Source: Bdellovibrionales bacterium (GTDB taxonomy: Bacteria; Bdellovibrionota; Bdellovibrionia; Bdellovibrionales; DASUEL01). From it: a stretch of 64,000 bases of DNA. Location of the stretch: assembly GCA_050250255.1 (NCBI GenBank), contig JBFWOZ010000003.1, positions 68,239 to 132,238 of the forward strand, read 5' to 3'. The position numbers and the translations under genes were made by a program. Below the pieces are notes generated by a model. It was not told where the DNA came from. It saw only the letters and a program-made list of their open reading frames with translations, and did not search any database. This document shows, piece after piece, positions 5,739 to 55,565 of the stretch (position 1 is its first letter; each line of letters starts with the position of its first letter).

Positions 5739-6225
5739 AGATAACTTCCATGAATTCTAGAATTCGTGTATTCGCGAATTCATTCAAGAGAACGCACACT
5801 TAAACATTCAAACTGAGATCTTGTCAACGCGAGGCTAACCCCAAAGCGGGGGAGTTCTGTCATAGAAATATAAGAGTTTAGGATGAGCTCTCAGAATTGG
5901 GTCCACGGACGGACCCCTCATTTCTGCAAAACCTATGAGGGACGGAGCTATTCTCTCTCATCCTATGTCTCAGAATGAGACTCCAAGTTTTCTCTCTAAA
6001 AATTCCTCAGTCAAATTGGCCACTTAGACTGGGTGTTTAAACTTCGTACATGAGATACGGTTTGCCTACAAATTCGTAAGTCCTTAATAGTACAAGGCTT
6101 TCAAGTTTTACTTTAACTGCGGAGCCGAAAAAGGTCTCTTTTCAGTAACTTACGAAATCTCCCTGCGCCCATAAGTTTTAGAAATTCATGAATGTTTTCA
6201 AGCTTTTGTAAACTCTTAAAAAACA

Positions 6226-28350: not shown

Positions 28351-30402
28351 TTAGGTGGAGATTAGGCCTGAGCGGCGTAGGAGTGCGTTCGGGTCTGGCT
28401 CTTGCCCACGGAACTTTTTATAAAGCTCCATCGCATCTTCGGTGTTTCCTTTAGAGAGAATGTTCTCGTAGAAAGATTTTGAAATATTCTCGTTGAAAAG
28501 ACCATTCATCTTGAAATGTTCGAAGGCGTCTGCATCGAGCACTTCGGCCCACTTATAAGAATAATATCCAGCAGAATACCCGCCAGCAAAAATATGCTGA
28601 AATCCTGCAGAGAAGCTCGTGTTCTCGATGAGTTTAAGAAGTCGCGTGGTGCTTGTGACTTCTCGTTCAAACTCGAGAACGTTGCCGTTAAAATCTTGCT
28701 GCTGTGAATGCCAAGCGAGATCAAGAAGTGCAAACTGCACTTGTCGTAAGGACATCCATCCTGCCATGAATTTTTGGCTCTCTACTAATTTTTTGTAAGT
28801 CTCTTCGGGAAACGCAGCGCCTGTCTTTCCGTGTTTGGCGATGGAGTAAAAAACTTCTTTTTCTAAAAGCCAATTTTCCATAAACTGTGAGGGAAGCTCT
28901 ACAAAATCCCAAGTTACGGATGTTCCGCTAAGACTTCGGTAAGTCACGTCTGAGAGGAGCCCGTGAAGAGCATGACCAAATTCATGAAAAAGCGTATTCA
29001 CATCGTCAAAGCGTAAAAAAGTTTCCTCATTCGGTAAACCTTTGCTGAAATTCATCACTATGGAAATGTGGGGGCGGCAAACTTTCCCTTGAAAGAGTCC
29101 TTGGTTACGAAATTGAGTCATCCAAGCACCAGCACGTTTCGATTCTCTTTGGTAGAGGTCGACATATAGAAGGCCAACGTATTGATTTGTACTTTTTGTG
29201 ACTTCAAATACTTGAACGTCTTTATGGTAAACGGGAATATCTTGGCGTTCTTTTAGTTCAATTCCGTAAAGTCTTTTAGCAAGTCCAAACATTCCTTTTA
29301 AGACATTTTGAACTCCAAAATAAGGTTTGAGTTCTTCCTGATTTACATCAAATTTTAGTTGAGTGAGTTTTTCGACAATGAATCCCGTATCCCAAGGAAA
29401 AACTTCACTTGAGCCCATATACTGTTTTTTGTAATCGGAGAGCTCATTCATTTCTTTTTTGGCTGCCGAGAGGGACACACCCCTGAGTTTCTCGAGGAAG
29501 TTCTGGGCGGTTTTCGTGTTTTGAACCATACGATCATCAAGAACAAAGTCTGCGTGAGAAGAAAATCCGAGAAGTTGGGCACGGTCTTTTCTTAAGTTAA
29601 CAATTTTTTGTATAACTTCTTCGTTGCTGTATTTACCATGAATGCATTTGCCATTATAAGCTCGGTAGAGTTCTTCACGAAGTTTGGCGTTTTCTCCCAT
29701 CTCCATAAAGGGGACGTAGGTGGGGGCATGGAGAGTCAGAGCCCATTCTTTTTCGTGACCGCGTTTTTTTGCCTCTTCTTGAAGTTGAGCTTTAAACTCT
29801 GGAGAGAGTCCGGCAAGTTCGGACTCATTTTTCACAAGGCGGACGTACTCATTGGTGGCTTCTTGTACATTTTCTTTAAATTGAGTGGTGAGCTTCGAGA
29901 GCTCTTGATCAATCGTACGGATTTTCTTTTTCTGCTCTTCGTTTAGCTTAGCTCCGTTACGTACAAACGAACGATGAGTTTCGGTGAGTAATCTTTTTTG
30001 TTCGGAATTTAGGCCTAAGGTATCTTTTTTCTCAAATAACTCATCGACTCGTTCAAAAATTTTTTGATCCAAAAACAAATCGCTTGAGAAGTCTGACTGA
30101 AGAAGGGCCATCTCTTTGGAGATTTTTTTAATTTCCTCAGAGGCTTCGGCGCTAAATAGATTGCTAAACACCGTAGAGATGGCTTCAACATCTTCGGCAA
30201 AAGTTTCAAACACTAGAAGTGTATTCTCAAAAGTAGGGACGGAGCTCTGTTTTATTTGATCTAACTTGGCGCGAGCTTTACTCATCTCTTTTTTGATAGA
30301 TGAGAGAAAATCTTCGTGGCTGATTTGATCATAAGGGATGGCGCCGTCGAAAATTGATGTTTTGGAGAGAATTTGCCCCATATTATCGTGAGTTTTTGTC
30401 AT
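28351..30402 (-). CDS. dcp: M3A metallopeptidase (peptidyl-dipeptidase Dcp / oligopeptidase A)
   Basis: PTFENT, KRAGAWM, FHEFGHALH, DFVELPSQFMENW, HIFAGGYSAGYYSYKWAE. Confidence 0.92.
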   Translation of the reverse strand: MTKTHDNMGQILSKTSIFDGAIPYDQISHEDFLSSIKKEMSKARAKLDQIKQSSVPTFENTLLVFETFAEDVEAISTVFSNLFSAEASEEIKKISKEMALLQSDFSSDLFLDQKIFERVDELFEKKDTLGLNSEQKRLLTETHRSFVRNGAKLNEEQKKKIRTIDQELSKLTTQFKENVQEATNEYVRLVKNESELAGLSPEFKAQLQEEAKKRGHEKEWALTLHAPTYVPFMEMGENAKLREELYRAYNGKCIHGKYSNEEVIQKIVNLRKDRAQLLGFSSHADFVLDDRMVQNTKTAQNFLEKLRGVSLSAAKKEMNELSDYKKQYMGSSEVFPWDTGFIVEKLTQLKFDVNQEELKPYFGVQNVLKGMFGLAKRLYGIELKERQDIPVYHKDVQVFEVTKSTNQYVGLLYVDLYQRESKRAGAWMTQFRNQGLFQGKVCRPHISIVMNFSKGLPNEETFLRFDDVNTLFHEFGHALHGLLSDVTYRSLSGTSVTWDFVELPSQFMENWLLEKEVFYSIAKHGKTGAAFPEETYKKLVESQKFMAGWMSLRQVQFALLDLAWHSQQQDFNGNVLEFEREVTSTTRLLKLIENTSFSAGFQHIFAGGYSAGYYSYKWAEVLDADAFEHFKMNGLFNENISKSFYENILSKGNTEDAMELYKKFRGQEPDPNALLRRSGLIST

Positions 30403-30497
30403 TGTTTCTTCTCCTTAGCGGTTGAATTCGCAGCATAAGTTTCACTATAATAGTCTAAACCCAACCCTGACACAGGGTCTATGAGATTGAGGCAAAG

Positions 30498-31310
30498 ATG
30501 ATTCTTCATTGGGGACCCAGTCCTGAAATTTTCTCGTTAGGTCCCTTAAGTATTCGCTGGTATGGCCTTCTTTTCGCTTCTGGGTTCATGATCGGTTATC
30601 GTATTATGGACAAAGTGTTTCGACGCGAGGGATATAATCGCGAACACCTTGACCACTTGCTTCTTTATTTGATCCTTGGCACCACGATTGGTGCACGTTT
30701 GGGACATTGTCTTTTTTATGAGCCAGAAATTTATCTTCGTGACCCTCTCCGTATTCTGGCGATTTGGGAGGGAGGACTTGCGAGTCATGGTGGGACCCTT
30801 GGCAACTTCTTCAGCTTGTGGCTTTTTGTACGAAGATTTAAAGAGTTCGACTACATTTGGCTGATTGACAGATTGAGTTATCCTATCGCTCTTGTTTCGT
30901 GCTTCATTCGTTTAGGAAATGTGATGAATTCCGAAATTCTCGGGAAGCCAACGAATAGCAGTTGGGGAGTGGTCTTTGACCATGTCGACTCGATCCCTCG
31001 TTATCCAGCCCAGCTTTTTGAGGCCATTATCTATTTGTTGACGTTTTTTCTCATGCGCTACCTCTACGACAAAACAAAAGCCTGGCAATACAGGGGACGG
31101 ATGTTCGGGATTTTCTTCTGTTGTATTTTCGGAAGCCGCTTCTTCATTGAACTCGTCAAAGAGAATCAAGTCCCTTTTGAAAACGCTTTGCCATTGAATA
31201 TGGGCCAGTTACTCAGCATTCCTTTTGTACTGTTGGGGATTGGATTCATTATCTACAGCCGTACTCATCGGGTAGAGCCTGCGTTAACTGCTAAGAAAAA
31301 GAAAAAATAG
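30498..31310 (+). CDS. lgt: Prolipoprotein diacylglyceryl transferase
   Basis: IRWYGL, GARLGH, GGLASHGG, RLGN.MNSE, RYPAQLFEA, MGQLLS. Confidence 0.95.
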   Translation: MILHWGPSPEIFSLGPLSIRWYGLLFASGFMIGYRIMDKVFRREGYNREHLDHLLLYLILGTTIGARLGHCLFYEPEIYLRDPLRILAIWEGGLASHGGTLGNFFSLWLFVRRFKEFDYIWLIDRLSYPIALVSCFIRLGNVMNSEILGKPTNSSWGVVFDHVDSIPRYPAQLFEAIIYLLTFFLMRYLYDKTKAWQYRGRMFGIFFCCIFGSRFFIELVKENQVPFENALPLNMGQLLSIPFVLLGIGFIIYSRTHRVEPALTAKKKKK

Positions 31311-31334
31311 TTTTAAGAACCCTTCTTTATAGCG

Positions 31335-32479
31335 GGGACGGAGCATAACTCCTCAAATTAGAAGAAGATTCATAAGTGAGCTTTGAGTTTAGTCGTTTTA
31401 AAGATCATGATTGGAATTCATCCGCACAAATAAACCTATTTGATGAATTTAAATTTTTTAGTTTTCTATTCGTAAGTAATTTTAATAAAAAGATGGTACT
31501 TTTTTTGTCTTAAAATACACGTTGGCCATCAACTTCTTTGAAATTGTTTTTTATAATTTAAAATATATTTTAACCTTCAGGCTGAAGATGTAATAGAAGC
31601 TTCTTTTACTAATTGAATCACGAACTGCCTGGTATTTATTTGCCAAATTGGCGAACCAATAAATGAAGAAAAAAACTCTGGATACTCTCTGTTTTTGTCG
31701 AGGTACTTATTAAACAGTGTTCGATATTTTGCCTGCCGTTCTTTTGCCGTAATTCCCAAAGCTAAATACCAGTTAGGTATAGTCAGAGTTCCTGAAAACT
31801 CATCTTTAATTCCGTAAGCATAAAACCTATAGCTAGAATATTTATAGGCCCTCAGCTGTAACTCTGTGCATTTTCCAGAGCGAATAGGATTTGCTTCTAT
31901 ATAAAAATGAACTCGAATCTGATGTTCGTCATTTTCAATTAAAGAAGTTTTAGGTCTGCCTTCAGCAACTTTACCGGATCTATTATGAATTTTATTATAC
32001 CTAGCGCCAAATAATGAATGTGCTTGTCTCAGGAAATTTGAGAGTTTTGAGCTTTCTTGTGTGTAATTCATCAGACTATGGAAATGATTGTCCATACAAG
32101 CGTAAGCCTGTATTTTAAGAGAGCTTTCTTTGTTATGGGATTTAAGAGCATCTTTGACGCTTTGAAGATAAAGCGACTTCGTTGAGGAAGAATTTAAGTA
32201 ATATTCTTTGTTATGACAGCGCCAATATTGATGAATAATGCCACATGAAGGAAAAAGCTGGATAGATCTAGGAATTCTCACAAATGAAAAGTCTTGCGAA
32301 ATAAAATCCTAGCTTATGTGCTAATGAATATAGAAGGACCATGTCTAGTAGAACTAAACCGGAAATGGTCCGGACGCTGCACATTAATATTATTTTTTTA
32401 TTGTAGCCACGAACTGTTCAATGTCCTGAGAGGTTGTGTCGAAGGCTGTCATCCAACGTACAATAGAGTGCTCCGTCCC
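31335..32479. mobile_element. RAYT cassette bounded by inverted GGGACGGAGCA repeats
   Basis: GGGACGGAGCA at 31335-31345 and TGCTCCGTCCC at 32469-32479 face inward around an AT-rich Y1 transposase gene. Confidence 0.6.
31577..32281 (-). CDS. REP-associated tyrosine transposase (RAYT, HUH/Y1, IS200 superfamily)
   Basis: HxxxRCHN, AYACMDNHFH (HUH), YNK...RSG, YIEANPIRSG (catalytic Tyr), YSSY, C-terminal WYLALG..ERQAKYR. Confidence 0.88.
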   Translation of the reverse strand: MRIPRSIQLFPSCGIIHQYWRCHNKEYYLNSSSTKSLYLQSVKDALKSHNKESSLKIQAYACMDNHFHSLMNYTQESSKLSNFLRQAHSLFGARYNKIHNRSGKVAEGRPKTSLIENDEHQIRVHFYIEANPIRSGKCTELQLRAYKYSSYRFYAYGIKDEFSGTLTIPNWYLALGITAKERQAKYRTLFNKYLDKNREYPEFFSSFIGSPIWQINTRQFVIQLVKEASITSSA

Positions 32480-33421
32480 TTTTTCCCATAAGTAAAAATG
32501 AAATGTTTTTTGTAGTTTTTCGATCAAAGAGTTAGGGATTCGGACGAAGAGGGCATTGGCATCCACAGATTGAGTGATCTCCACTCTTGAAAGAGCTGTT
32601 AGCTCTTTGGAAAAAAGCTGAGCCATCTTGTTAGAATGCTCCGCATTTTTTAACCATAGGCTATCGGTAAGGAGAGCTTCAAATTGTGCGGAGATAAAAC
32701 GCATTTTCGAAGCGAGCTGCATATTTTGTTTGCGGTAGAATTTCATCTTCTGAGCGAGCTTTTTATTAAAAAACACGATGGCTTCGCCGTACATAAGGCC
32801 ATTTTTAGTGCCGCCAAAACTTAAAACGTCCACACCATGAGTGGCCGCTTTGATATTTCTATCAAGATGTGCGATAGCGTTGGCGATTCGTGCTCCATCC
32901 ATATGTACAAAGATTCCATGTTTTTTTGCGACTTCAGAGATTTGTTTTAATTCTTTTTGGGAGTATACGGTTCCAAGTTCGGTGCTTTGGCTCAAAGAAA
33001 TCGCACGTGTTTGCGTTTTATGTTGGTCGCCATTCACTAAAAGACTTTTTTCGATTTGTTGAGCGGTGATTTTGCCATTTTCGGTGGGTAGAGTAACGAG
33101 TTTGCAACCTAAGATATTTTCGGGAGCGCCACATTCGTCTTCCTGGATATGTGCCCGTGCAGAACAGATCACAGATTCGTAACGGTCGATCATGGATCTT
33201 AAACTTAAAACATTGGCGGCAGTCCCGTTAAAAACAAAAAAAACCTCCACGTCGCCAAAGATTTTCTGAAACTTTTTTTGCGCACGTGCGGTGTACTCGT
33301 CATCACCATAAGCGGTGGCGTGGCCTTCGTTGCAGTTTACGAGCGCTTTCATGATGTCAGGATGAACGCTGGCGTAGTTATCGCTTGCGAAATGTCTTGG
33401 ACGTAAGTTTTTAGATTTCAT
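32390..33421 (-). CDS. ltaE: Low-specificity L-threonine aldolase
   Basis: FASDN, YGDDEYT, NGTAAN, HMDGARIANA, SFGGTKNG (PLP Lys), SKMRF. Confidence 0.9.
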   Translation of the reverse strand: MKSKNLRPRHFASDNYASVHPDIMKALVNCNEGHATAYGDDEYTARAQKKFQKIFGDVEVFFVFNGTAANVLSLRSMIDRYESVICSARAHIQEDECGAPENILGCKLVTLPTENGKITAQQIEKSLLVNGDQHKTQTRAISLSQSTELGTVYSQKELKQISEVAKKHGIFVHMDGARIANAIAHLDRNIKAATHGVDVLSFGGTKNGLMYGEAIVFFNKKLAQKMKFYRKQNMQLASKMRFISAQFEALLTDSLWLKNAEHSNKMAQLFSKELTALSRVEITQSVDANALFVRIPNSLIEKLQKTFHFYLWEKGTEHSIVRWMTAFDTTSQDIEQFVATIKK

Positions 33422-33428
33422 TTACTGA

Positions 33429-34103
33429 TTATGTCGTTGTCGGGAGACCAAAATCAAAAGGTCTTTCGGCTATCATGCAGAGCGCTTCTGCAAAAGCCTT
33501 CGCCGAAGCTTCCACTTCATCAAGGGATCCAGTGAGGTAGGCACCGCCAAAGTTCGTCTCTGTGGGCGGTTTAAAGTGTTTTACAAGCTTTACTTCTGCG
33601 GCTTTGAGTGCGCAATCAAGAGCGATCACAGATTCAATCGGCGGCGCGATGAGATAAGCCATGGGATCTCCAGGCTTTAGTCCTGACTCTTTCGAGAGAT
33701 AGTAACCAAGAGATGAGATGACGTGAGGAAAGAAATTGATTTCGCGAGAGCCGGTTGTTTTATAAAACCAAGCAGTTCGTTCCAGTTCGGCAAGACATGA
33801 ATTGATACCATCTTGTACCGACTGGTTATCGCTCCCATGAATGATGCCAAGAACTTCTCCCGATAGAGGACCTGAGGAATGTCCAGAGCCAGCATAAAAC
33901 GACTTTGCAAAGATCACGTTCACTTGAGAAGCTTTCGTGCATTCATCAAGGGCAGCGTAGAGGGCGTCATCCATATCGCAAGTGATAAGACCAAGAGAGG
34001 TGCCATCTTTAGGCGAAGCGCTGAAAGACTCGAGCAAACTTTTATGTGCGTCGGGGATGAGTTTAACGCTTAACACTTTTGGTTTTACAGGCACGATATT
34101 CAT
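33429..34103 (-). CDS. eutL: Ethanolamine utilisation microcompartment shell protein EutL (BMC-T)
   Basis: SLGLITCD.DD..YAALDE.TK, AKSFYAG, GPLSGE, AYLIAPP.E, PPTETNFGGAYLTG. Confidence 0.9.
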   Translation of the reverse strand: MNIVPVKPKVLSVKLIPDAHKSLLESFSASPKDGTSLGLITCDMDDALYAALDECTKASQVNVIFAKSFYAGSGHSSGPLSGEVLGIIHGSDNQSVQDGINSCLAELERTAWFYKTTGSREINFFPHVISSLGYYLSKESGLKPGDPMAYLIAPPIESVIALDCALKAAEVKLVKHFKPPTETNFGGAYLTGSLDEVEASAKAFAEALCMIAERPFDFGLPTTT

Positions 34104-34111
34104 GGTGGCTC

Positions 34112-35089
34112 CTATCCGATATCGAGATCGACGCCGCTTTTTTTTTGTTCAAACATTTTACTCACAGTAAACCCAATGTAACGAGCGGCATCTTGAGCGT
34201 TTAGCCCACGTGGATGAATGTTCGAGATACAATTGCGATTCGCGTGAGTGGAAGTCGGGTTGGGATTGTAAATGAGATAGGCGCTCAAGCCATCGCCGGT
34301 ACCAAGTCCCGGTCGCTCTCCAATCAAAATAATGGAAACTTTCGTATTTACGATTTCGCCGATGCGATCTTGCAAAGTGACACGACCGTAGCGGCAATAA
34401 ATAGGTGTTCCAATTTTATAACCTTTGACTGAAAGCTCCTGTTTTAAAAAAGGTAGGAGCTTTTCGATGTTCACATTAAGGGCGATACCGCTCAGTCCAT
34501 CACTGATGACAATTTGCACATCAGGGTTCTGTTCAACATGTGTTTTGAGGCGAGCGGCGCACTCAGGCTTTAAAACCCGGCCTAGATCAGGTCGCAGTAA
34601 AAAATTGTCTTTATTATCGATCTGCGTACGCACTTCAAAACATCCCAAAGCTTTCACTTTTTCTGAGGGGAAATCTTCATAAACGGCGCGTTTTGCGATC
34701 GCATGATCCGCAAGAAAATCAAGCATCACTTTGGTTTTAGGCCGCACGCCCGCACGCCACACACCGAGGCGGGCGGCCGTGCACTGCAAAAATTCTTTCA
34801 GCCTCTGAGCGTTCTTCGGATTTGGAATCAGTTGGTAACGAGGTTCGTGTTTTTGTTTCGTTTGTGAGTCATCGCCTAAAGCTTGATGATGGGGGACTTG
34901 GCCTTCTTCCACCTGATGCCAGGGGCGAGAACCAATTTTCAGGCCTGGCTGAGAACGCTTAGGAATTTTTACTGGTTTTGAAGCTTCGTCTTGGTTTTTT
35001 AAAAAACGATCAAGTACACCGCGATTTCTATTGATTCGCTCGGCGTCTCGTTGATTTTTAATTTCCTGCTCGATCTTTTCGTCTAACAT
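34112..35089 (-). CDS. eutC: Ethanolamine ammonia-lyase small subunit
   Basis: TAARLGVWRAG, FLADHA.A..AV, LLRPDLGR, SDGLS, LIGERPGL, NRNCISNIH; about 85-aa N-terminal extension. Confidence 0.93.
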   Translation of the reverse strand: MLDEKIEQEIKNQRDAERINRNRGVLDRFLKNQDEASKPVKIPKRSQPGLKIGSRPWHQVEEGQVPHHQALGDDSQTKQKHEPRYQLIPNPKNAQRLKEFLQCTAARLGVWRAGVRPKTKVMLDFLADHAIAKRAVYEDFPSEKVKALGCFEVRTQIDNKDNFLLRPDLGRVLKPECAARLKTHVEQNPDVQIVISDGLSGIALNVNIEKLLPFLKQELSVKGYKIGTPIYCRYGRVTLQDRIGEIVNTKVSIILIGERPGLGTGDGLSAYLIYNPNPTSTHANRNCISNIHPRGLNAQDAARYIGFTVSKMFEQKKSGVDLDIG

Positions 35090-35098
35090 TCTTTTACC

Positions 35099-36475
35099 TT
35101 AGTGAAAGAGGGGTGAAGATTCAAAAATGGTAGGGTCTCCCGCACGTGGACCAAGCTGACCATTTTTCCAAATACCCATTTTCTCAAGCCACTCCTCAAA
35201 TTCCGGAGTGGGTTTCATTTTAAAAATTTCTCTGACCGATGCGTTGTCGTGAAAACTGGTGCTTTGGTAGTTCAGCATGATGTCGTCCCCCATGGGAAGG
35301 GACATAAAATAATTTACGCCTGCGGCGGTGAGAAGTATTGCCAAGTTCTCTAAATCGTTTTGGTCGCAAATCGCGTGATTTGTGTAACAATCATCAACGC
35401 CCATGGAAATTCCCATGAGTTTTCCCATAAAGTGATCTTCAAGAGCCGCACGTGTGATCTGTTTGGCATCGTAAAGATATTCAGGGCCGATAAATCCCAC
35501 AACGGTGTTTACGAGAAACGGTTTAAAGTGACGAGCAAAACCGTAAGCGCGGGCTTCCATGGTAAGTTGATCGGTACCGTAGTGAGCATCGGCAGAAAGA
35601 GCGGTGCCCTGGCCGGTTTCGAAGTACATACGATTAGGACCCTTAGCTGTTCCGAGTTTCGCGATCATGTCGGATGCCTCTTGAATCAGACTTACGTTGA
35701 TTCCAAACACTCGATTTGCGCGCTCCGTCCCCGCGAGGGATTGGAAAAATAAGTCGACGGGTGCGCCCAAGCGCAAGGCTTCCATTTGGATGGTGATGTG
35801 GGCAAGTACGCAATTTTGTGTGGGAATTTTGTATTTTTGAATGAGTTCATAAAGAGCGGCGAGGATATCGGCCGTGTTTCTCACGGATTCGGTGGCGGGG
35901 TTAATTCCTAGTACTGCGTCCCCGGTTCCGTAGGAGAGGCCTTCTTTGATGCCGGCAAGAATACCTTCGACGTTGTCGCGAGGGTCGTTCGTTTGAAGCC
36001 TTGAAGAAATGCGGCCGGGGAGCCCTAAAGTGTTATTACATTTTACGACCACGCGAATTTTGGAAGCCGCTAAAACAAGGTCCATGTTGGACATAATCTT
36101 GGTCACAGCCGCCGCCATCTCAGGAGTAATTCCGTAAGCAAGGCGTGCGATGTCTTTGCCGGAAGTTTTGTGATCTAAAAGAAACTCTCGAAATTCGCCG
36201 ACGCTTTTGCCACGCAGGAGGTTATAGGCGGTTTGATCTAAGTTGTCTTCGATAAGCCTCGTGATTTCATCTTGTTCATAGGGGACGGAGGGATTTTCGC
36301 GAAAGATGGAAAGAGGTTGTTCTGCCAACACCAATTTTGCGGCGACACGTTCGCTGAGGTTTTGTGTACCAAGTCCGGCTAAACGATCTCCGGATTTTTC
36401 TTCATTAGCTTTTGCCATAAGGTCTTTGATAGAAGAAAAGCTGTGGTGACTCCCATGGAGTTTAGTTGTGAACAT
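35099..36475 (-). CDS. eutB: Ethanolamine ammonia-lyase large subunit
   Basis: KANEEKSGD.LAG, PYEQDEITR, YFETGQG, VNTVVGFIGPEY, LEDHFMGKL, NYQSTSFHD; ATG start 36475 (ORF track uses TTG 36502). Confidence 0.95.
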   Translation of the reverse strand: MFTTKLHGSHHSFSSIKDLMAKANEEKSGDRLAGLGTQNLSERVAAKLVLAEQPLSIFRENPSVPYEQDEITRLIEDNLDQTAYNLLRGKSVGEFREFLLDHKTSGKDIARLAYGITPEMAAAVTKIMSNMDLVLAASKIRVVVKCNNTLGLPGRISSRLQTNDPRDNVEGILAGIKEGLSYGTGDAVLGINPATESVRNTADILAALYELIQKYKIPTQNCVLAHITIQMEALRLGAPVDLFFQSLAGTERANRVFGINVSLIQEASDMIAKLGTAKGPNRMYFETGQGTALSADAHYGTDQLTMEARAYGFARHFKPFLVNTVVGFIGPEYLYDAKQITRAALEDHFMGKLMGISMGVDDCYTNHAICDQNDLENLAILLTAAGVNYFMSLPMGDDIMLNYQSTSFHDNASVREIFKMKPTPEFEEWLEKMGIWKNGQLGPRAGDPTIFESSPLFH

Positions 36476-36665
36476 GGCATTTTTTATGTGCTCCGTCCCC
36501 AATGGTCTACAGAAAATGGAGTGATGTCTTTTTGCGGAAATGCTGCGTCACAGGCGATGGTCAGAGTGAGTCGCAAAGCCCATTAGTTGAGCTCCGTCCC
36601 TCAAAAATACGTGTAAGGGCTGAGGAAAGCTGCTCGTGCTTTATGCGATGCATAAGGCGTAGGGA

Positions 36666-37301
36666 TTATTTCAACTGATAAATCGTTTTGTTATTCTTTG
36701 GCTTACGGTTTCGACCGAGAGTCATGTCGGTGAGCTCGAGACTCACGTGATCTGCTTCTTCTTTGAGCGTGTAGGTGTTCTTCAGAATATAGCGTGCGGA
36801 TTTTTTACCGACTTCTTTAATAAGGTAATCATAGGTTTGAATAAGTTCAACTTTACCGTTTGAAACTTTCGTTGCTGGAGTAGGCGGAGATTCTGACTCT
36901 GATTTTTTTTCTTCCTTTTTAGCGGCAGGGATTTCGTTTGCAGGTAGAGGCGCAGCGGTACGCGTGACTTTATAAACGAGAAGCTGTGTTTCCTCTATGT
37001 TTGCATCTCTACCCAGTAGGCCTTTAAAATATTCAATAACAATGATATTTTTATTTGAAAACAGATGGATTTGTTCGCAGTTTTTTTCTGGACCATTGGA
37101 GTAAATCATAACGGGTTCCAAATCGCCGACAACAAGGAAATGTGTTTTCTCTTTATAGACGACGCGAACAAATTGTTCGCCTAAGTTACCATCACAAGCG
37201 ATTTCTTCTTCTTGATTGGGAACACGTTTTACAGGAGAAGGTTTTGCAAAAGCAAACGAGAAGCTAAGAGCAATCATGAATATGAGAGGAGATTTAATCA
37301 T
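36666..37301 (-). CDS. Hypothetical exported protein
   Basis: Signal peptide; ATGA-coupled to the upstream 706-aa gene. Confidence 0.6.
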   Translation of the reverse strand: MIKSPLIFMIALSFSFAFAKPSPVKRVPNQEEEIACDGNLGEQFVRVVYKEKTHFLVVGDLEPVMIYSNGPEKNCEQIHLFSNKNIIVIEYFKGLLGRDANIEETQLLVYKVTRTAAPLPANEIPAAKKEEKKSESESPPTPATKVSNGKVELIQTYDYLIKEVGKKSARYILKNTYTLKEEADHVSLELTDMTLGRNRKPKNNKTIYQLK

Positions 37302-39418
37302 GGCAACTCCGTATAGAAACTATCGTCATAAACTTCCATACAGGCGCCAACAGTGAGTGGTTTGCCATCAATGGTGGGAACCTTACTAATATTACGCTCA
37401 ACTTCATATGCTTTTACATAAACTTTTTCTTTTTTCCCTGTTTTTCTATTTTTTCTAGTTCTCTTAGTATTAACTAGAACTTCCTTTATGATGCGATCTT
37501 TTGGTTGAGCTTTGTACTCACTTATAGCAAGTCTTACAAGTGCCCTGTGGGGCGCTGCTTTCATGGGCGGCATGCCGTGGAAATCCTTCCAGTCCGTACC
37601 AGAAGTATAGAATTTTTGTTTGAAACTTTCTTTCCCTTTTAAAAACTTTGGAGAATCAAAAATGGCATCATAGCACTCGCGTTTGCAAACATTAAAACTT
37701 TCTACTTGCTCTGCTGTTGCTTTAGCTTGTACTCCCCCAGCCCAGAACTTTTCGTCTACTTTGTACGGAGGACACAGTGCGCGTTTATAGTCATCACCTG
37801 GAGCATCCCATACAGAGTAGGCCTTGTTTCTCAGTATAACATTAATAAATGGATGTGCCTCTAGGCCTTTTGCAGACGTAGAGAGCTGAGATTTTCCCCA
37901 TGTCGAGGCAGTACGACCCGTTCGAGAATCACCAAAAGCCTCCGTATAGCGATTGTAAACACTGGCTACGACTGCTTTAAGATATTCATGCTTTTGGCCA
38001 CACTTGCCGCCGCCCATTTCTGCACTGCAGTTGCGTGAACAAAGATCCGCGGCTTGCAGATTTTCTACAACGCCAGGCATATCATTCTTGAGTGCTGTAA
38101 ACTCAGGATCTGCATTTAAATCACAGGCCAGTTTATGAAGACCGATAGGCCTTTTTGTAACAGAAATGTTAATGGGATTACCTTTTTTGTCTTTGCCTTT
38201 TTGAGTCGTTGTTTTAGGAACGCAATCTGCTGGATCCCTATTGAAAAGAGTACGGTCGTGAACGGTGTATTCATCACCAATCGTCTTGCAGTCGTTAATT
38301 GGTTGCCCCAAGTATTTTTCGACAATTACATAGAGCTCGTCGAGTTTATTGTTGGGTTTTACAAGAGACGCGATATGTTGCTGAAGACCATTTTTCTCTC
38401 CACAGTCGTTACATTCTGGAGTTGCAATTCCGGCTTCGGTTTTGGATGAAGGAGGTTTGGGAGCTCCCTGAGAGCGCTTTGGTGGAGGAGATGAAGTCTC
38501 ATCCAGGACTTCTACTGTAGGATTTTTTTCATCCAACCTCATAACGGGATTAGTGATGAGAAGTGGGCCCCTTTCAATTGCCGAAATAGTAAGACGAAGA
38601 CCATTGTCAGTAGGAGTTTCGTTGGTTTTAGCTTCAATTTTTTTAGTGGTGGTGTCCGCTCGAAGTACTGGTAAATCGGGATAGCTTTTAAGTGAAGAAA
38701 ACATGACTCCGCCTTCGCGAAACTCTTCTTCAGACTCCTTGTCGATTTTCTCATCCTTGGGAATAGGTTGAGAAACTATCGCTCGTGGGGCAAACACGGG
38801 ATTCTTATTTTTGTCTTTTAATTCCCAGATTGCTGTTCCGGTAATTTCCATGATCGGAGGGACTTTATTTTCTGACGGGAGAATAGGTTTTTGAGTAGCA
38901 GGTTCATTGTTTTCAGCGGGTTGATGTTCAAAAATCACTTGCGCTCTTTTTTCGTCAATGAACATTGTGCGACGAGGAGCGGTAGTTTTTAATTCCTGTA
39001 AAAATATTTTTCCAGATTTGTCTTTGGCGGTGATATCTATGGCAACTTCTTGATCAGGTCCGTTGAGACGTTTAACAGGAATGATAAGATAGTTGGATTC
39101 AATCCGTCCTAATAAAAAACTTCCCTGAGGAATGGTGACTTTGTAATTGCGAGTGACCTTGCCACGAGGAACATCAATGCCTATCGTGAGAGGCACGGTT
39201 ACACGGAAAGGCGTCAACCCATCCTGCGGAGTTTTGAGAAGCTCAGGCGGTATGGGCTGTACAAGCGGTGCCTGTTGCACAACTGGTGTTCTTGCGGGAG
39301 GTTGCATAGATCTATTGGGTGCAGGCCTCGGCGCCGCAGGTTTTGCGGTGCTTTTTTGTCCCTGAGCAAAAGCTGTAGTGGACAGACAGAATAAAAGGAA
39401 AATCAGCGTTTTTTTCAC
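37298..39418 (-). CDS. Large exported protein with a putative SleB/Hydrolase_2-like cell wall hydrolase domain
   Basis: Signal peptide, Pro-rich linkers, CxxC, then SRNCSAEM...KAVVASVYNR...VILRNKAYSVWD. Confidence 0.55.
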   Translation of the reverse strand: MKKTLIFLLFCLSTTAFAQGQKSTAKPAAPRPAPNRSMQPPARTPVVQQAPLVQPIPPELLKTPQDGLTPFRVTVPLTIGIDVPRGKVTRNYKVTIPQGSFLLGRIESNYLIIPVKRLNGPDQEVAIDITAKDKSGKIFLQELKTTAPRRTMFIDEKRAQVIFEHQPAENNEPATQKPILPSENKVPPIMEITGTAIWELKDKNKNPVFAPRAIVSQPIPKDEKIDKESEEEFREGGVMFSSLKSYPDLPVLRADTTTKKIEAKTNETPTDNGLRLTISAIERGPLLITNPVMRLDEKNPTVEVLDETSSPPPKRSQGAPKPPSSKTEAGIATPECNDCGEKNGLQQHIASLVKPNNKLDELYVIVEKYLGQPINDCKTIGDEYTVHDRTLFNRDPADCVPKTTTQKGKDKKGNPINISVTKRPIGLHKLACDLNADPEFTALKNDMPGVVENLQAADLCSRNCSAEMGGGKCGQKHEYLKAVVASVYNRYTEAFGDSRTGRTASTWGKSQLSTSAKGLEAHPFINVILRNKAYSVWDAPGDDYKRALCPPYKVDEKFWAGGVQAKATAEQVESFNVCKRECYDAIFDSPKFLKGKESFKQKFYTSGTDWKDFHGMPPMKAAPHRALVRLAISEYKAQPKDRIIKEVLVNTKRTRKNRKTGKKEKVYVKAYEVERNISKVPTIDGKPLTVGACMEVYDDSFYTELP

Positions 39419-39938: not shown

Positions 39939-40081
39939 CAAAAGTGCCAGTGTCTTTTTTCTGGCTACATCGCTTCACGAAGTGGCCGCGGTGTAGCCAG
40001 AAAAAAGACACTGGCACTTTTGTTATCGCTTCACGAAGTGGCCGCGGTGTAGCCAGAAAAAAGACACTGGCACTTTTGTTA
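39936..40081. repeat. Long inverted repeat plus exact 56-bp tandem duplication (REP/REPIN-like)
   Basis: 34-bp perfect arms 39936-39969 and 39992-40025; segment 39970-40025 repeated exactly at 40026-40081. Confidence 0.9.
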
Positions 40082-40825
40082 GCCTTTTCCGAGAGTCGCT
40101 TTGCGGTAATCCGATTTCATGAGAGCGATGTTAGAAATCGAAATCTCTTTCGGGCAAGCGGCTTCACATTCACCAATGTTTGTGCAACCACCAAACATTT
40201 CGGCGTCCATTTGGTGAACCATCTTCTCCACGCGAGTGGTACGTTCAATTTGGCCTTGAGGTAAAAGAGCTAATTGAGCAATCTTCGCGGAAGTAAAGAG
40301 AGAAGCCGAAGCATTTGGGCAGGCGGCCACGCAGGCGCCGCAGCCGATGCATGTCGCTGCATCAAAAGCTTTATCCGAAGCTTCTTTTGAAACAAGGATT
40401 GCGTTTGCGTCAGCGTGTTTTCCTGTTTTTGCCGAAATGTAACCGCCAGAGGCGATAATGCGATCAAAACTTGCGCGATCGACCACGAGATCTTTTACAA
40501 TCGGAAATGCCGTAGCTCTCCAAGGTTCCACCACGAGAGTGTCGCCGTCTTTAAATTCACGCATGTAAAGTTCGCAAGTGGTCGTACCGCGATTGGGGCC
40601 GTGAGCTTGACCGTTGATCATGCAACCGCAGGATCCGCAGATGCCTTCGCGACAATCGCTATCAAACTCTACGGGGCGTTCGCCCGCTTTTAAGAGTTGA
40701 ATGTTGAGTACATCGAGCATTTCGAGAAAAGACATATCGGGAGAAATGTCGCTGATCGAGTAGCTCTTCAAAACACCTGGTTTGCCTGGACCATCTTGAC
40801 GCCAAATTTGTAATGTTAGTTTCAT
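40079..40825 (-). CDS. sdhB: Succinate dehydrogenase/fumarate reductase iron-sulfur subunit
   Basis: [34 protein letters not shown]. Confidence 0.95.
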
Positions 40826-54140: not shown

Positions 54141-55565
54141 TTAGCCATTCAGAGTGCGACCATGAACGGCGAGAGCCGCCTCTTTAGTGGCTTCAGAAAT
54201 GGTAGGATGGCCATGCATCGTGAGCGCGACGTCTTCGGCAGTAGCTCCAAACTCCATCGCTACACAAATCTCGTGGATCATCTCGGAGGCGTTCGGAGTC
54301 ATCATGTGAGCTCCTAGAATGCGATCCGTTTTTTCATCCACCAAAAGTTTTACGAAACCGTCGGTTTCACCAACGCTGATCGCGCGGCCGTTAGCTCTGA
54401 GATTAAATTGTCCTTTTTTGTAAGCCACACCCTCTTTTTTTAATTCCTGTTCTGTTTTGCCCACGCTTGCCACTTCCGGGTGAGTATAGAGAATTCCGGG
54501 AACAAGACCATATTCTACTTCCGGTTTTTGACCGGCGAGTATTTCGGCACAAGCCACACCTTCTTCTTCCGCCTTGTGCGCGAGCATCAGCCCACCGATC
54601 ACATCCCCAAGGGCGTAAACGCCGGGGACGGAGGTCTCAAAATGTGTGTTCACTTCGATAAATCCACGTTGGCTTGGTTTTAATCCGATATTTTCTAAGC
54701 CTAACCCTTCCGTGTAAGGTTTACGGCCGACGCTCATAAGAACGCGATCGGCTTCGATCTTTCGCTCTTTGCCCTCACTATCTTTTACGGTGACGATGGC
54801 CTTTTTGCCATCCACTTTTACGCCTTGAACCGCGGTTTTAAGAGAGAAGGTGAGTCCTTGTTTTTGAAGAATTTTGAGAAGTCCCGAACTTAAAGCATCA
54901 TCCATATTGGGAATGATCTTGTCTTGAAATTCCACAACCTCAACAGAGGATCCAAGTCGCGCCCATACGGAACCCAATTCTAATCCGATGTAACCGCCGC
55001 CAATCACCACCAGTTTTTTAGGAACTTCAGAGAGAGAAAGGCCGCCCGTCGAAGAGACCACGCGATCTTCATCGATTTTTACACTTGGCAAGGAAGAGGG
55101 GACACTGCCGGTTGCAATGATGGTATGTTTTGATTTTAAAATCGTTTTTGTTCCATCTGCGCCGGTTACGAGAATTTCGTGAGCCGATTTAAAACTGCCG
55201 GTTCCGCGAAAAGAAGTGATTTTGTTTTTCTTAAAAAGTCCGGCTACGCCACTTGTAAGAGTGTTCACAACTTGCGTTTTTCTTTCGAGCATTTTTTTAA
55301 GATCGAGTTTTATGCCTTCAATCATCACACCGTGCTCTTTGGCTTCTGTGTGAGACTTGTGAAACAGGTGACTCGATTCAAGCAGCGCTTTGCTAGGAAT
55401 ACAGCCGACATTGAGACACGTGCCACCGAGAGTAGGATCTTTCTCTACGCAAGCGGTGTTGAAACCTAGTTGGCTCGCGCGAATGGCCGCGATATAACCA
55501 CCGGGGCCGGAGCCAAGGATTACCACATCAAACTCTAAATTTTCGGTAGAGGAAGCCATGATCAA
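54141..55565 (-). CDS. lpdA: Dihydrolipoamide dehydrogenase (E3)
   Basis: [26 protein letters not shown]. Confidence 0.96.

Follow-up and report, generated by a model that had tools for sequence, protein, structure and literature searches.

A Y1/HUH transposase gene within a polarised halo of its element's end motif in a Bdellovibrionales genome

The DNA analysed here (the window) is a 64-kb stretch of contig JBFWOZ010000003.1 from a Bdellovibrionales bacterium. It contains a Y1/HUH tyrosine transposase gene (31577..32281, minus strand), an open frame of 234 aa with NHFH, YIEANP and SS (YSSY) motifs, lying between two short terminal inverted repeats (TIRs). The right repeat (31335..31344, plus strand) is an exact copy of a 10-mer motif and stands in register with the right ends of related copies on contigs C20, C57, C56 and C93. 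The left repeat (32374..32383, minus strand) is eroded, with a degenerate motif, and is in register with the left ends of the copies on C20, C57, C83 and C75. Around the element lie a gene for an M3 peptidase (Dcp/OpdA-like, dcp below; 28351..30402, minus strand; PF01432), lgt (30498..31310, plus strand; PF01790, TIGR00544) and eutB-eutC-eutL-ltaE (32390..36475, minus strand; assigned by domain and family matches), the last group carrying or bordering six copies of the motif.

The exact 10-mer occurs seven times in the window, on either strand, at 5939, 30236, 31335, 32470, 35722, 36490 and 36591, against 0.07 copies expected, and none of 100 dinucleotide shuffles reached seven. One-mismatch copies lie at 97, 19168, 36282, 54625 and 55504; together with the exact copies they make 12, against 2.3 expected. 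A preliminary description, made from the letters of the window alone, had all seven exact positions right, and its estimate of well under one chance copy per 64 kb agrees with the shuffles. The four one-mismatch copies it listed are present, the one at 55504 having been overlooked, as were the polarity of the copies, the role of 31335 as an element end and two further copies in eutB. The six local exact copies are polarised: two lie on the plus strand to the left of the transposase gene and four on the minus strand to its right, and all face the gene.

We refer to the copies that surround the element as its halo. Three exact halo copies that face the element are coding, in the frames already described: one in dcp (30236..30245, plus strand), antisense to the gene, reads S-S-V-P; one in ltaE (32470..32479, minus strand), ~90 bp outside the eroded left end, reads K-G-T-E-H; and one in eutB (35722..35731, minus strand) reads A-G-T-E. 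The eutB gene also holds a variant copy facing the element (35914..35923, minus strand; G-D-A), with G changed to C at core position 6, and a copy with the full 9-mer core that faces away from it (36282..36291, plus strand; P-S-V-P). At the start region of eutB, an exact copy facing the element (36490..36499, minus strand) lies just upstream of the probable ATG (36475) and would be coding only with a TTG start at 36502. A further exact copy, intergenic and upstream of eutB (36591..36600, minus strand), also faces the element. In most copies in the window the motif is not folded into a stem, and there is no GTAG foot.

Under a synonymous-codon null with the proteins held fixed, the seven open reading frames (ORFs) between 28.3 and 36.7 kb contain four exact copies (36490 included) where 0.031 are expected, and the ORFs in the rest of the genome contain six where 1.4 are expected. 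The whole 3.09-Mb genome has 21 exact copies, and these are clustered. The proposed local clustering around the transposase is thus borne out by the codon null and by the genome-wide positions, and the motif is not spread evenly over the genome.

The 234-aa transposase has no Pfam match, and its score of 46.6 bits against NCBIfam NF047646 is under the RAYT equivalog cut-off of 80. Its predicted structure (predicted local distance difference test score 93.9) gave TnpA-REP (PDB 4er8) as the top fold match, with IS200/IS605 transposases next; a PDB sequence search with the transposase alignment returned no matches. Among 36 homologues, N65-H66-x-H68, Y127, N131 and P132 show little or no variation. 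The consensus between the HUH and Tyr motifs is GKVAEGRPKT, with no W[EQ]/FQ motif. The C-terminal tail is helical in the model, with no helix-turn-helix (HTH) among the listed fold matches and no Pfam HTH match, subclass hidden Markov models not having been used. From the conserved residues and the fold, the enzyme would be expected to cleave single-stranded DNA and transfer strands through a 5'-phosphotyrosine.

The host genome carries at least four full transposase genes and three end fragments, at unrelated sites. The three further full genes share 73–75% aa identity with the window gene, and the window gene differs from its paralogues by 65–82 synonymous and 38–41 non-synonymous codon differences in 190 codons. 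Younger genomic copies start and stop exactly at the motif, in inverted orientation and ~1.05 kb apart; the element boundary is the first base of the motif. Both ends are intact in the C20 and C57 copies; in the window copy only the right end is. The left and right ends match each other over only ~9–13 bp, the element copies are 87–88% identical, and two complete young copies show no evident target duplication. One paralogue (G000:C20:39189-39893) has a right end with a 15-bp duplication across the boundary and is probably inactive because its HUH motif is altered to NHFL-N. A relative's genome has up to nine matches to the transposase. The gene had been described as a domesticated RAYT, a view that gives way to that of an element present in several copies at unrelated sites, with the motif as its TIR. 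Since the short TIR of this Y1/HUH element is the motif, we class the window gene, on sequence grounds, as the resident copy of a ~1.05-kb multi-copy TIRtron-like element.

To see the halo at other loci, we scanned 185,579 genomes and obtained 47 related loci, from genomes titled Bdellovibrionales, Bacteriovoracaceae, Oligoflexia or similar. Halo statistics were computed for 44 of them, in 15 genomes (L010, L011 and L047 were excluded), leaving out the element zone and merging tandem copies. Motif density fell with distance, from 3.72 per 10 kb in the first kb through 2.47, 1.65 and 0.71 to 0.22 per 10 kb at 7–9.5 kb; the reversed-motif control did not exceed 0.18 per 10 kb (five copies in all). 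Distal copies pointed inward, facing the element, in 67 cases and outward in 25. The transposase family (E below 1e-50) was carried by 7 of the 151 genomes of the order, and in all seven the motif exceeded the reversed control (motif/control 31/8, 64/4, 62/10, 103/7, 106/14, 26/14 and 10/2). The strongest genome-wide excesses among the 151 were found in carriers. Most non-carriers were near control level, with a milder excess in G064 (32/16) and G093 (18/7), neither of which matches the transposase query. The halo is therefore not a one-off system: it recurs across the transposase family as a general feature not confined to the window. This association and the codon null agree with the earlier view that the motif belongs to this enzyme and is local rather than genome-wide.

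Halo size and type varied between copies. Large halos surround copies with eroded-looking ends (the window, L019, L041 and L173, the last with 20 copies in 20 kb, 19 of them in crudely called ORFs), and the young copies on C20 and C57 have the motif only at their two ends. In one genome the L009 halo is of the GGAC type (4/4) and the L015 halo of the GGAG type (11/11), each halo following its local end variant. A sub-family (L012–L014, L016, L018, L022) carries T as the second core base of its end motif (GTGAC type) and has few halo copies. At L173:3477-3502 a back-to-back motif pair 6 bp apart lies in frame inside an 889-aa ORF and resembles a right-end/left-end junction. Three motif copies lie in one 324-aa gene near a contig end (L178; G000:C66:1319-1697), on a contig with no Y1 gene; by eye the gene resembles ornithine cyclodeaminase, and this may be an orphan halo, or the element may lie past the contig end. 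Dense motif clusters, with 13 copies in 5 kb and a regular 66-bp spacing, were seen at G003:C8:6281-11510 and on C68 and C123 of G156.

Halo copies use all three frames and both gene strands. We compared coding copies from 18 query loci with their orthologues, retaining 28 sites with at least two orthologue rows. At 21 of these the copy was gap-free; near the other seven the alignment had a gap, mostly where its quality was poor. Each gap-free site had at least one residue off the orthologue majority, often arising from a near-match (for example GEGV to GDGV, or GAE to GTE). The orthologue sites differed from the motif by 2–9 of 10 bases, and many of the changes are non-synonymous in housekeeping genes. 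In the window, the dcp copy lies in a variable loop; the motif was absent from all 29 orthologues, with a gap nearby in 16 of the 29 rows. The ltaE copy is also in a variable loop; P0002, the closest homologue, has a loop equally long, and in most of the others it is shorter by 2 aa. For the eutB copy at 35722, two orthologues had other codons (two and four mismatches). The suggestion that near-matches had been changed with the frame kept thus fits these intact genes, in which gap-free copies sit at sites with near-motif codons, and orthologues away from the element do not share the codons. The third-position GC content of neighbouring genes showed no obvious dip.

A close EutB match (53–100% identity) was found in only three of the 151 genomes: the window genome, G034 (C10, L122) and G058 (C17, L172). 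All three carry the transposase family, and shared gene exchange is possible; of the species genomes scanned, G034 also has the closest Y1 relative (69%). In G034 and G058 the family lies elsewhere and not near eutB: we found no motif and no Y1 gene in 17 kb around eutB in G034, and no Y1 gene in the 20 kb examined around it in G058.

The enrichment concerns above all the complete motif. In ORFs within ~6 kb of 14 elements selected for having halos, the perfect 9-mer core occurred 65 times against 1.2 expected (~50-fold), one-mismatch sites 35 times against 23, with the excess at core positions 6–8, and two-mismatch sites 217 times against 253. The G-to-C variant at core position 6 was found eight times against 0.5 expected. 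Neither prefixes of 4–7 nt nor suffixes of 4–8 nt of the motif were enriched around these loci, and a 5'-anchored patch of variable length was rejected because short prefixes were not enriched. A logo of 90 coding copies carried information from about −2 to +11. The tolerated position 6 prompted the idea of the motif as a mini-hairpin, which was also set aside; DNA folding agreed with it for only one young left end among nine sequences.

The element's own ends show repeated re-copying. A repeat of at least 9 nt lay just upstream in 60 of 257 motif contexts; by hand count, ~40 of the 60 repeat rows take in at least four bases of the outer flank, usually starting 7–15 nt beyond the motif; their inner ends are nested. 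Between two genomes that are 92–96% alike, one orthologous end had been re-duplicated differently, and another element had collapsed in one genome, leaving its ends abutted as a dimer beside a deletion. A flank-plus-motif fragment lay at different places in the two genomes, and motif copies stood at synteny breaks between close relatives, elsewhere than at the window locus. In one gene shared by the close pair, each genome has a perfect motif at one site and a near-match with clustered extra changes at the other; one of these two coding sites includes an in-frame 3-nt gap. A larger close-pair comparison took in 151 sites (114 kb of G156 covered): 84 lacked a counterpart, 59 fell at breakpoints, for the most part element ends, six were shared and two were polymorphic, one of the latter being an alignment artefact from a tandem duplication. 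No usable empty insertion site was found, nor any congener for G002.

What is established here is the anatomy of the element, the decay and polarity of the halo, its association with the enzyme family, gap-free replacement in coding sequence and repeated re-copying of ends. To account for these, we cautiously favour a nick-and-paste process in cis, in which the enzyme, near its own gene, pastes an ~11-nt motif patch over look-alike host sites. The strand that bears the motif would be nicked a few bases to the 5' side of it; the enzyme's tyrosine would hold the 5' end, and repair synthesis primed by the free 3'-OH would restore the donor. Nested end duplications would result if the end is rejoined where it was cut. 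Rarely, the tethered end would be joined to a same-strand near-match close by and then trimmed, giving an ~11-nt patch with no change in length, and selection on host proteins would retain only the patches that are tolerated. On this view a halo would enlarge the longer its element stays in place, in keeping with the large halos at eroded copies and their lack at young ones. More tentatively, and with somewhat less confidence than in the local process, TIR-flanked Y1/HUH enzymes at large could be writers of short patches in cis (~11 bases, no insertion or deletion, fixed orientation, ~7 kb range) that alter codons and residues of the host and place spare ends around the resident element.

Several observations weigh against this nick-and-paste explanation. 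The end duplications start 7–15 nt outside the motif, yet halo copies seldom share outer flanks (at least 4 nt in 1.7% of within-locus pairs, compared with 0.7% of between-locus pairs). Roughly one distal copy in four faces outward, and several loci other than L009 and L015 mix motif variants. Copying is not the only reading of the tolerated G-to-C variant, which recognition of the site or selection would fit equally well. The enzyme's activity is predicted from conserved residues and fold. Since most orthologues are only ~70% identical, a patch and slow substitution are inseparable site by site, and a search of 40 other genomes yielded no outgroup that would give the two close-pair changes a direction. 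The related genomes are not independent, which limits the halo counts, and the selection of haloed elements bears on the core enrichment. A depletion of near-matches, once considered, was dropped as evidence since a similar small shortfall appeared in element-free controls.

The alternative that survives best, although we think it unlikely, is a recognition ratchet, in which the motif arises by point mutation and sites near the gene, once perfect, are retained, either because binding benefits the element or the host or because motif-bounded DNA is preferentially transferred, a local molecular drive like that of uptake sequences. In its favour, most targets are near-matches when judged by protein sequence, only core positions 6–8 accept variants, as in a binding logo, each close-pair site differs in a single core base, and three shared non-terminal sites are perfectly retained between close genomes. 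It does not explain why intermediates are not enriched, or why orthologue sites are 2–9 bases off with many non-synonymous changes in housekeeping genes; the patchiness of the element among relatives (7/151 genomes) would also have left it limited time.

Rather less probable are footprints of local hopping, left when the element or one end jumps nearby, then excises or collapses leaving its end motif, so that in-frame scars survive. The collapsed end dimer with its adjacent deletion, the tiny facing pairs and flank-plus-motif fragments at several places, the motifs at synteny breaks and the gaps near 7 of 28 coding sites are what hopping would leave, and footprints probably explain many non-coding copies. 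However, 21 of the 28 coding copies are gap-free and lie on pre-existing near-matches in housekeeping genes, and a single scar has no reason to face the resident element.

We consider it improbable that the outer copies are alternative ends of a composite transposon that brought in eut-ltaE or permits cassettes to be swapped or inverted. The eroded left end, the inward-facing copies that bracket eutBCL-ltaE and the presence of the transposase family in all three genomes with a close EutB match would suit it, but the eutB regions of G034 (no motif or Y1 gene) and G058 (no Y1 gene) do not, and copies inside genes and halos around core genes are left unexplained. The preliminary description had raised swappable cassettes for the window locus; contigs of three runs from one study support the window assembly, and no inversion or excision joint between motif copies was among the joints listed for them, a check in which one run may be the assembly source and contigs lose rare variants. 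Finally, it is scarcely credible that the motif has no link to the gene and is a chromosomal polarity motif of the replication-terminus or FtsK-orienting polar sequence type, an uptake sequence or a methylation site: a strand switch at one point does resemble terminus-polar motifs, but terminus-type and genome-wide motifs are excluded because the 21 copies are clustered and GC skew stays positive along the whole contig with no sign change, and most non-carriers are near control level. A possible parallel in a Legionella HUH/terminus system was dropped when a search for it gave only an Xer-type dimer-resolution paper without HUH.

Two further features lie beyond eutB in the window. Two adjoining ORFs of 211 and 706 aa (36666-39418) have hydrophobic N-termini and no Pfam match. 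Foreign contigs align in large numbers to 39940-40350 and stop abruptly near 40351, probably marking a conserved structural RNA.

No description of such a halo was found in the literature searched, which covers few subscription journals, nor was any earlier description found there of patch writing in cis as a mode of mutagenesis by mobile elements. The halo offers a quantitative footprint of enzyme action, in range, strand and site length, and a mobile element would here alter the sequence of intact host genes, residues included, rather than only interrupting them. Given a defined site of 11 nt and a zone in which nicking is predicted, the de novo origin of RAYT-family repeats becomes directly testable, and the GTGAC-type sub-family provides a natural specificity variant for assays. 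Scar-free short-patch writing could also be of interest as a tool.

How does this element compare with known systems, as these are set out in the available text of the sources cited? TIRtrons (TIRYTs), named by Di Nocera, De Gregorio and Rocco in 2013 (PMC3733652) and mentioned by only two works in the literature searched, were mostly assigned to TnpA-Y1 subclass 2.1 by Quentin et al. in 2018 (PMC6006769). Our element shares with TIRtrons a RAYT-like Y1 gene between inverted repeats other than GTAG REPs, a G-rich end motif, diverged paralogues and dispersed end repeats that are single, dimeric or grouped (PMC3733652), and with subclass 2.1 the NH[VYF]H, Y-x-x-x-NP and SS motifs and a similar length (~238 aa, 234 here; PMC6006769). 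TIRtron repeats are long, whereas the repeat here is only ~10 bp; its end motif fits GGGGWSAS, a motif given for some TIRtrons only, at seven of eight positions, position 7 being G (PMC3733652). The W[EQ]/FQ motif of subclass 2.1 and its C-terminal HTH-like domain (Bac_DnaA_C, HTH_23, HTH_28) were not detected in this element's enzymes (PMC6006769). Neither a polarised, distance-decaying halo nor gap-free writing into coding sequence figures in the available TIRtron descriptions (PMC3733652, PMC6006769).

The REPtrons (TnpA-REP/RAYT groups 2 and 3, with their repetitive extragenic palindromes, REPs, and bacterial interspersed mosaic elements, BIMEs) have the same fold (PDB 4er8; PMC3333891, PMC8266576, PMC5581495). 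Cutting by HUH enzymes yields a 5'-phosphotyrosine link and a 3'-OH, which may either attack that link or serve as a primer for synthesis, and TnpA-REP cuts away from its bound site (PMC8266576, PMC3333891); a nick-prime-rejoin model published for it accounts for tandem end copies (PMC3333891). A REPtron gene, however, is single-copy and sessile, flanked by GT[AG]G-tagged hairpin REPs that are numerous genome-wide, whereas the element here is multi-copy and mobile as a unit, with 21 exact copies of its motif and no GTAG-tagged hairpins. Its repeats stay close by and fall largely in coding sequence, where they take the place of existing bases, unlike inserted REPtron hairpins. IS200/IS605 elements (subclass 1.1, PMC6006769) are also small, multi-copy Y1/HUH elements with no evident target duplication; they have Y-x-x-x-Q, subterminal hairpins and near-identical copies, where ours has Y-x-x-x-NP, inverted ends and 87–88% identity. 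The Ssn nuclease is a different enzyme, with flanking hairpins (PMC11893778). DNA uptake sequences share with the halo a ~10-bp motif amassed in genes, in several frames, that shapes codons and residues; they are genome-wide (PMC2817400), whereas the motif described here is local, polarised and tied to one mobile gene.

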